Assembly (NCBI RefSeq): GCF_022846255.1 | Contig: NZ_AP025682.1 | DNA length: 64,000 bases | Origin: Escherichia coli | Lineage (GTDB): Bacteria > Pseudomonadota > Gammaproteobacteria > Enterobacterales > Enterobacteriaceae | Direction: 5' to 3' (one strand) | Shown: in pieces, positions 39,695 to 39,935 of the stretch | Layout: every line of letters starts with the position of its first letter | How positions within the stretch are numbered: the first letter of the stretch is position 1 | Made by a program: the position numbers and the translations under genes | The notes under the pieces: model-generated | Told to the model about the DNA's origin: nothing | Database searches by the model: none | What the model saw: only the letters and a program-made list of their open reading frames with translations

Positions 39695-39705
39695 ATTGCA
39701 GGCGT

Positions 39706-39729
39706 AAAAAAGCGGCGTTGTTAGCCGCT
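39706..39729 (-). terminator. Intrinsic terminator (minus-strand orientation) at the distal end of the lpd 3' region, adjacent to yacH stop
   Basis: Stem AGCGGC / GCCGCT (39711-39716 / 39724-39729), loop GTTGTTA; on the minus strand followed by TTTTT(T) (complement of 39706-39710). Confidence 0.55.
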
Positions 39730-39753
39730 TAAGACTGATGACAAACATCGAAT

Positions 39754-39853
39754 CGCCCGATGCGCAAGCTTATCGGGCCTACACAAGCCATGCAATATAT
39801 TGAATTTGCATGATTTTGTAGGTCGGATAAGGCGTTTACGCCGCATCCGGCAT
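39754..39853. repeat. REP/BIME cluster between yacH and lpd
   Basis: CGCCCGATGCGCAAGCTTATCGGGCCTACACAAG (39754-39787) and GTAGGTCGGATAAGGCGTTTACGCCGCATCCGGCATC (39818-39853). Confidence 0.8.
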
Positions 39854-39880
39854 CAACCACGAGCACTTTATCAACAATCT

Positions 39881-39910
39881 GAAGCGGCCAGAATAGCCGC
39901 TTCTTAATTT
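39881..39910 (+). terminator. Hairpin with T-rich tail (plus-strand orientation) between the REP cluster and lpd stop
   Basis: Stem GAAGCGGC / GCCGCTTC (39881-39888 / 39896-39903) followed by TTAATTT. Confidence 0.4.
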
Positions 39911-39935
39911 GCCGGATGTTCCGGCAAACGAAAAA

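Follow-up and report, generated by a model that had tools for sequence, protein, structure and literature searches.

The spacer between yacH and lpd (lpdA) in the stretch of Escherichia coli DNA analysed here (64,000 nt, the window) is the footprint of a BIME-1 insertion in a shared terminator, and not a device dedicated to lpd. We consider it highly probable that an old, still polymorphic BIME-1 insertion lies within a single bidirectional terminator common to the two genes. The hairpins on either side of the element, termed L and R below, appear to be one terminator hairpin that was duplicated around BIME-1, since their stems are identical, their spacing is exact and other loci are analogous. 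The inserted unit is itself a further BIME-1 copy, ordinary as a class and without a K-12 counterpart.

Anatomy of the yacH-lpd spacer

The plus-strand gene yacH (ORF 37913-39694; annotated in matching genomes as yacH, a DUF3300 protein) ends with a TAA stop codon at 39692-39694. On the minus strand, lpd encodes the E3 subunit common to pyruvate dehydrogenase, 2-oxoglutarate dehydrogenase and glycine cleavage, and its stop codon was placed at 39936-39938 from the ORF list and the annotation of matching genomes. The spacer between the two stop codons measures about 241-244 bp and holds one BIME-1 unit only. Seen from yacH, it begins with an A6 run (39706-39711), which in the lpd sense (minus strand) is the U6 tract after hairpin L; the corresponding run is A7 in empty alleles and in the occupied allele of Z1323CEC0015 (hereafter Z1323). 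Hairpin L (AAGCGGC-gttgtta-GCCGCTT, 39710-39730, minus strand) is the left copy of the 21-bp direct repeat D1. Beyond the BIME-1 unit lies hairpin R (AAGCGGC-cagaata-GCCGCTT, 39882-39902, plus strand), the right copy of the duplicated hairpin, whose stem extends to 8 bp at 39881-39903 and is followed in the window by TTAATTTG. Its T-rich tail on the plus strand (39903-39911) is degraded to CTTAATTTG; the Z1323 and empty alleles read TTTTTTAAT. A repeat finder returned hairpins L and R as 21-nt direct repeats with identical stems, 172 nt apart, and their loops differ at 4-5 of the 7 positions. A small minus-strand hairpin (TTTGCCGGA-tgt-TCCGGCAAA, 39908-39928), without a U tract and 8 nt from the lpd stop codon, completes the spacer. 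It was found in both occupied and empty alleles, and it is disrupted in some strains (L162 and L163).

A first-pass annotation of this DNA had listed five items, all of which are present within a few bases of where it had placed them: convergent yacH and lpd genes, a minus-strand terminator hairpin with a T-run at 39706-39729 (hairpin L with the A6 run), two inverted REP copies at 39754-39853 (the Y and Z1 REPs described below), a plus-strand hairpin with a T-rich tail at 39881-39910 (hairpin R and its tail), and a short hairpin next to the lpd stop codon. Its picture of oppositely oriented hairpins flanking a BIME was anatomically right, but the two hairpins, being 21-nt direct repeats, are not independent of each other.

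The central 151 bp (39731-39881, to which no strand was assigned) is, as judged from its sequence, a BIME-1 of the RIB/RIP class, composed of a Y REP, a linker with an IHF site and a Z1 REP. The unit aligned end to end with 10 other BIME-1 copies and gave a full-length match to an HMM built from those copies. Its left outer motif AAGACTGATGACAAA (39731-39745) and right outer motif TTTATCAACAATCTG (39867-39881) are inverted relative to each other and form part of a 39-nt inverted repeat (I1) that is 74% complementary; they are kept across copies, and the typical forms of the two motifs are complementary at 11 of 14 positions. The Y-type REP GCCCGATGCGCAAGCTTATCGGGCCTAC (39755-39782) was identified by alignment to family copies and contains inverted repeat I12. 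The Z1-type REP GTAGGTCGGATAAGGCGTTTACGCCGCATCCGGCA (39818-39852) has a single mismatch to the 34-nt REP pattern, which was absent from 100 shuffles of the window. Alignment, the REP pattern and the inverted repeats I2 and I4 all place Y and Z1 in inverted orientation. Between them, the 35-nt L linker (39783-39817) was recognized by an L-motif pattern match, its core TGCAATATATTGAATTTGCA matching the 20-nt pattern exactly (0 matches in 100 window shuffles). The linker carries a predicted IHF-like site, ATTCAATATATTG (39793-39805, minus strand), with one mismatch to the IHF consensus WATCAANNNNTTR. The window's Y REP differs from other copies by matching changes on both sides (CCTGAT/ATCAGG to CCCGAT/ATCGGG), so that pairing is retained.

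An Rfam search of the region returned repeat-derived families only and no known sRNA or riboswitch. The ES036/CssrF family, which corresponds to the L linker of BIME-1, matched 39775-39817 on the minus strand with 38.2 bits against a gathering score of 37.6; naRNA4 gave a partial match on the Z1 REP, under its gathering score, and Ysr224 was matched at chance level.

BIME-1 has been defined as a single-copy y + L + z1 arrangement in which L often carries an IHF site (Ton-Hoang 2012, PMC3333891). The inverted Y and Z1 REPs around an IHF-type linker found here agree with the BIME-1, RIB and RIP elements of Gilson, Bachellier and Hofnung, of Boccard & Prentki 1993 and of Oppenheim 1993, as far as these are summarized by Ton-Hoang 2012 (PMC3333891), and the presence or absence of such elements differs between strains, as at lpd-yacH. 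Earlier work had already established BIME-1 as an element, along with the IHF site, the location at 3' ends and the presence/absence polymorphism. The lpd-yacH copy is missing from K-12, the strain in which BIMEs were first catalogued. Excision of a whole BIME-1 is reportedly mentioned in a 1997 paper.

A promoter scan found no promoter-like sites in 39500-40100. Two small minus-strand ORFs in the spacer (41 and 45 aa) lie wholly inside the repeat element and were treated as spurious. Inverted repeat I5 joins the 5' half of the small hairpin (39910-39918, TGCCGGATG) to the end of the Z1 REP (39844-39852, CATCCGGCA), the two being exactly complementary. This may mark the small hairpin as a remnant of a REP, or it may be due to chance. 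Upstream of the spacer, yacH contains a 96-bp tandem repeat (39326-39557; 2.4 copies, 88% identity) that encodes a Q/R-rich stretch. The gene is unusually divergent, with 95.7% identity to another B2 genome that has an identical spacer and 82-90% to other Escherichia. Elsewhere in the window, at 57220-57304, a REP pair with a short linker (GCCTGATAAAACGCGCCAGCGTCGCATCAGGCA then GTCGGATGCGGCGTGAACGCCTTATCCGACGTAC) looks like a BIME-2.

Occupied and empty alleles

Over 3.7 kb, the window is closest (99.6%) to ST73-type B2 strains such as Nissle 1917, CFT073 and ATCC 25922. The full region (at least 80% of the query) was found in 493 of 5426 complete E. coli genomes, and identity bands suggest about 550 occupied genomes once variants are counted, giving a range of about 490-550. 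Occupied strains among the matches listed were all B2-type, mainly CFT073, Nissle 1917, 536 and LF82. An empty junction is present in 4857 of the 5426 genomes (about 90%), K-12 and O157 included. The empty allele has a 70-bp spacer with one hairpin, GTAAAAAAAGCGGC-gtggtta-GCCGCTTTTTTAATTGCC, in the arrangement A7-hairpin-T6. It is a textbook case of a bidirectional intrinsic terminator between convergent genes (Ju et al. 2019, via Harris 2026; Wang et al. 2022 preprint). The window's terminator differs from these in being split by the element into two one-way halves that face each other across 151 bp.

The relation between the two alleles is clearest in Z1323, whose occupied allele has the flanks of the empty allele (A7, the loop GTGGTTA, and T6 after hairpin R). 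When 172 bp are taken out of it, namely the 151-bp unit and one 21-bp repeat, the empty (K-12) allele is obtained exactly. The 21-bp duplication that flanks the element at lpd-yacH is accordingly single copy in the empty site, which is a MITE-type signature. The Z1323 and window units differ at 4 of 151 positions and share the locus-specific Y REP variant, and on these grounds an independent re-insertion in Z1323 was rejected. All six of the empty alleles that were read have one common junction of the Z1323 type; recurrent deletion from window-type alleles is therefore unsupported. We also rejected the possibility that the hairpins were brought along from a donor locus, as their stems are locus-specific and match the local empty site. 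Fold-back extension of a palindrome would make hairpin R an inverted copy of L; at this locus the loops fit neither orientation (16 versus 16 of 21 positions), and the fold-back reading was rejected because the direct orientation is clearly better at four other loci with conserved loops (28 versus 25, 18 versus 14, 20 versus 15 and 18 versus 16 identities, direct versus inverted).

E. whittamii, Escherichia sp. MOD1-EC7003 and 'E. coli' E69 all carry the same copy, together with both hairpins and the Y REP variant; in SCPM-O-B-8794 the left part of this copy is seen, as far as the contig extends. The allele of Escherichia sp. E1V33 is empty. BIME-1 remnants were found in E. albertii, in a rearranged locus where BIME halves and hairpins surround an extra small ORF. 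In the 749-bp yacH-lpd spacer of one E. albertii contig (L013, 4795-5543), a degenerate hairpin, an outer motif and a Y REP precede a stretch of about 470 bp with a small minus-strand ORF, the start of whose product resembles a signal peptide (MKAFLTTVVLTAAVFSGMAVA...); then follow a second A7-hairpin with the same stems and an outer motif and REP oriented opposite to those of E. coli.

Across 10 distinct occupied alleles, none of the 28 stem positions of hairpins L and R is variable, against 48 of 235 positions elsewhere (Fisher one-sided p = 0.0025). Each loop has 2 variable positions out of 7, and the small hairpin has 6 out of 21. The invariant stems and variable loops indicate that both flanking hairpins are under constraint while their loops evolve freely, and support some function for the flanking hairpins.

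The loops of L and R diverged before the Escherichia lineages named above split, from which we conclude that the insertion is old. On balance, it was probably followed by a precise loss between the repeats, and this loss now predominates in E. coli; short-patch recombination is possible in place of precise loss. The polarity might instead be reversed, with the single hairpin a never-occupied ancestral state that has persisted beside the occupied allele. The target-duplication signatures do imply that an unoccupied site once existed, and both the single junction common to all empty alleles read and the empty allele of E1V33 would fit such a history. We nevertheless regard it as rather unlikely, since the occupied state extends to at least four further lineages of Escherichia and has left remnants in E. 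albertii, and since the divergence of the L and R loops predates the lineage split and makes the insertion old. The flanks of Z1323 point the same way: from those of an O157 empty allele they differ at only 3 of 360 lpd positions and 3 of 150 yacH positions, from the window's flanks at 6 (lpd) and 18 (yacH), and this near-identity to an empty allele fits a recent precise loss or short-patch recombination better. As a guide to relatedness, lpd identity is too conserved to resolve polarity.

Predicted crossed terminators and 3' ends of lpd and yacH

The duplication at lpd-yacH spans the hairpin and leaves out the A-run and the T-run, so that the left copy would have kept the A-run and the right copy the T-run. 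With the A-run left and the T-run right, hairpin L is predicted to terminate only the minus strand (lpd) and hairpin R only the plus strand (yacH). The terminators would thereby be crossed, in that the U-tract hairpin of each gene lies beyond BIME-1 as seen from that gene. A polymerase leaving lpd would have to cross the small hairpin, hairpin R and the two REPs to reach its canonical terminator near the yacH stop codon, and the yacH terminator would lie near the lpd stop codon and be weak in the window allele.

Hairpin L has a core of five GC pairs followed by U6 and by its make-up looks like an intrinsic terminator, in the lpd direction only. Folding energies were -11 kcal/mol for hairpin L (z -2.97 versus shuffles), -14.1 kcal/mol for hairpin R (z -2.78) and -16.3 kcal/mol for the small hairpin on the minus strand (z -5.2); the whole spacer, compared with shuffled sequence, gave z -7.8 (minus strand) and -6.4 (plus strand). 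With the d'Aubenton-Carafa discriminant (d-score; in our own rendering of the formula, with modern ViennaRNA energy parameters), the single hairpin of the empty allele scored +13.9 on the minus and +15.7 on the plus strand. In the window allele, hairpin L scored +5.3 in the lpd sense (minus strand) and -34 in the yacH sense (plus strand), hairpin R -26 on the minus and about -19 on the plus strand, and the small hairpin was negative on both strands. The low plus-strand score of hairpin R is explained by its tail, which reads TTCTTAATTT; with the T6 tail of the Z1323 allele, hairpin R scored +8.3 on the plus strand. Given this poor U tract, termination of yacH at hairpin R of the window allele may be inefficient. 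A consensus scan called hairpin R (5 T in 8) as the only terminator-like site and missed hairpin L because A/T pairs were counted as stem, which shortened the T-run.

From this arrangement, both mRNAs should carry BIME-1 in their 3' UTRs and be complementary to each other over about 190-200 nt. The REP stem-loops in these 3' UTRs could then act as exonuclease blocks or partial attenuators, and the linker DNA could, to judge by its motif, bind IHF. REPs are known to block exonucleases and to attenuate transcription in part, to some extent through Rho. When they lie between convergent genes, their presence correlates with higher expression of the two genes, REP325 acts as a terminator and a stabiliser, and among 306 bidirectional terminators that have been mapped, 78 REPs were located (Harris et al. 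2026 preprint). By analogy, REP-mediated stabilisation of the lpd and yacH mRNAs is plausible, and so is partial termination inside BIME-1.

For K-12, a Rho termination region antisense to yacH has been mapped at 129399 (+), with a score of 2.54 and p = 2.7e-6 (Adams 2021, eLife, supplementary file 2). This position corresponds to a site just left of hairpin L in the window, and a Rho region antisense to yacH points to lpd read-through in K-12 despite an intact terminator. No lpd 3' end is listed at the terminator position in a curated K-12 Term-seq table. The predicted lpd 3' UTR is about 230 nt with BIME-1 in the CFT073, Nissle 1917, 536 and LF82 lineages, compared with about 50 nt in most other E. 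coli, and the two alleles form a natural pair suited to testing the effects of a REP doublet on termination, mRNA stability and convergent transcription.

The first-pass annotation had read the same parts as layered 3'-end formation and mRNA stabilisation for a highly expressed lpd transcript. The crossed arrangement speaks against layering, as the terminator assigned to lpd, on the minus strand, is the more distant of the two. That an evolved, layered set of 3'-end and stabiliser signals serves high lpd expression agrees with the conservation of both flanking stems and with what has been reported for REPs between convergent genes and for REP325 (Harris et al. 2026 preprint), but we judge it improbable. 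About 90% of complete E. coli genomes lack the element while depending equally on lpd, the layout of hairpin, BIME and hairpin recurs at unrelated gene pairs, the small hairpin is poorly conserved, and the plus-strand terminator is degraded in the window allele (about -19, compared with about +16 in K-12). Still further from the data is a chance landing of the BIME between two independent, gene-specific terminators, without any duplication. Loops that differ at 4-5 of 7 positions would be expected under such a scenario; the 7-bp stems are identical on both sides, however, there is just one hairpin in the empty allele, from which precisely the unit and 21 bp are missing, and the same pattern with conserved loops is seen at pbp4b-yfeX, yjbR-uvrA, mgtA-ridA and fruA-psuK. 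We consider this scenario very improbable indeed.

The preferred reading, a BIME-1 within one shared terminator, also offers a route back to the single hairpin. The unit could be lost, and the single terminator restored, when the hairpin repeats recombine or when replication slips from one to the other, events that the palindromic element would favour; such repeat-mediated deletion is the likely origin of the K-12-type allele.

Other BIME-1 loci and a tentative insertion mechanism

A metagenome scan for the left outer motif and an HMM search together gave about 20 distinct BIME-1 loci among the matches listed, a sample that is biased by the search pattern. At 7 of the 20 loci (lpd-yacH, artJ-rlmC, fruA-psuK, mgtA-ridA, yjbR-uvrA, pbp4b-yfeX and the metagenome locus L040) direct repeats abut the unit, ending at 0 nt and starting 0-2 nt away. 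Depending on the analysis, three or four of these seven score above the maximum of 240-342 mismatched-pair controls. The flanking hairpin duplications are 18-30 bp long, with repeat lengths of 18, 20, 21, 21, 24 and 30 bp. The pbp4b-yfeX locus is occupied in 1401 genomes and has a 30-bp hairpin repeat (28 of 30 positions identical), present once in the empty allele; at yjbR-uvrA, which 88 genomes have in the occupied form, a 21-bp repeat (18 of 21) is found, of which K-12 has one copy. At 16 of the 20 loci the unit is adjoined by the foot of a well-formed hairpin, at 0 nt in 15 of those, and some of the loci are without any hairpin. Counted by unit sides, hairpin feet were found at 19 of 40, compared with 7% of random positions on the same contigs (p = 4e-12), a baseline that consists mostly of coding sequence.

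The window holds a second BIME-1 between cueO and gcd (30350-30500), which is likewise polymorphic in E. coli; gcd (plus strand) has its stop codon near 30345, and cueO is on the minus strand. Here the hairpin ATGCCCGGA-tctc-TCCGGGCAT abuts the left end of the unit, which lies exactly at the 3' foot of this cueO-side hairpin. The locus shows neither a duplication nor a gcd-side copy, and its empty allele (L161) has the same hairpin, then TATGG, then the gcd stop codon.

These observations lead us to propose, tentatively and as a possibility somewhat short of an even chance, that BIME-1 integrates at the foot of an intrinsic-terminator hairpin and duplicates the whole hairpin, the length of the duplication being set by structure (18-30 bp) and not by an enzyme. 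One bidirectional terminator would thereby become two crossed one-way terminators with the element in both 3' UTRs, a change that deletion between the repeats could reverse. The proposal is based on three occupied/empty pairs (lpd-yacH, pbp4b-yfeX and yjbR-uvrA) with two hairpins versus one, on the abutting direct repeats at 7 of 20 loci and on the hairpin foot at 16 of 20. Strand transfer at the hairpin foot on each strand of a palindromic target might give staggered joins one hairpin apart, and gap repair of these joins would duplicate the hairpin, so that repeat length would equal hairpin length. We did not find a duplication of terminator hairpins around BIME-1 described in the accessible literature, which excludes the primary BIME papers of 1991-1997.

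The element shares features with several known systems. It resembles REPIN/RAYT-TnpA_REP elements (Bertels & Rainey 2011, PMC3116915; Nunvar 2010, PMC2817692; Ton-Hoang 2012) in being a non-autonomous, long-persistent REP doublet with a long hairpin; the tnpA_REP gene itself lies between yafL and fhiA (Ton-Hoang 2012, PMC3333891) and is not to be expected in the window, near lpd. Transposition of the IS200/IS605 Y1 type, the model for RAYT, gives no target duplication, unlike the 18-30 bp direct repeats that flank BIME-1 here. With MITEs such as ERIC and Correia (Delihas 2011, PMC3184786), BIME-1 shares inverted outer motifs, flanking direct repeats and the lack of coding capacity, but its flanking repeats are atypical in being variable in length and equal to the local hairpin. 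REPs have been regarded as being without MITE signatures (Delihas 2011, PMC3184786), and the insertion mechanism of BIMEs and REPs has been called 'not fully established' (Harris et al. 2026 preprint). If the proposed mechanism is true, a consistent target and footprint would make REP/BIME spread experimentally testable, and the mechanism would account for REP/BIME elements at 3' ends between convergent genes. The question of how these elements spread dates from the 1980s, and the lpd-yacH locus offers a lead on how BIME-1 elements choose and mark their targets. Group IIC introns reportedly insert just after intrinsic terminator stem-loops as well; their placement at the hairpin foot, which avoids gene disruption, is the same as here, but they are a different kind of element with a different mechanism, and to our knowledge they do not duplicate the hairpin.

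Insertion sequences (IS1B, IS200C and an unnamed transposase) were observed at or next to BIME-1 at pbp4b-yfeX (H146 and H163) and mgtA-ridA (H207 and H208) in some E. coli. BIMEs are known targets of IS elements, and the insertions at these two loci are consistent with this. Two metagenome contigs, L041 and L058, have the left flank and BIME-1 in common and differ in their right flanks and right-hand hairpins (TTTGTCGGCAG...CTGCCGACAAA versus AAGCCCCGGC...GCCGGGGTTT), which suggests rearrangement or recombination at the element boundary.
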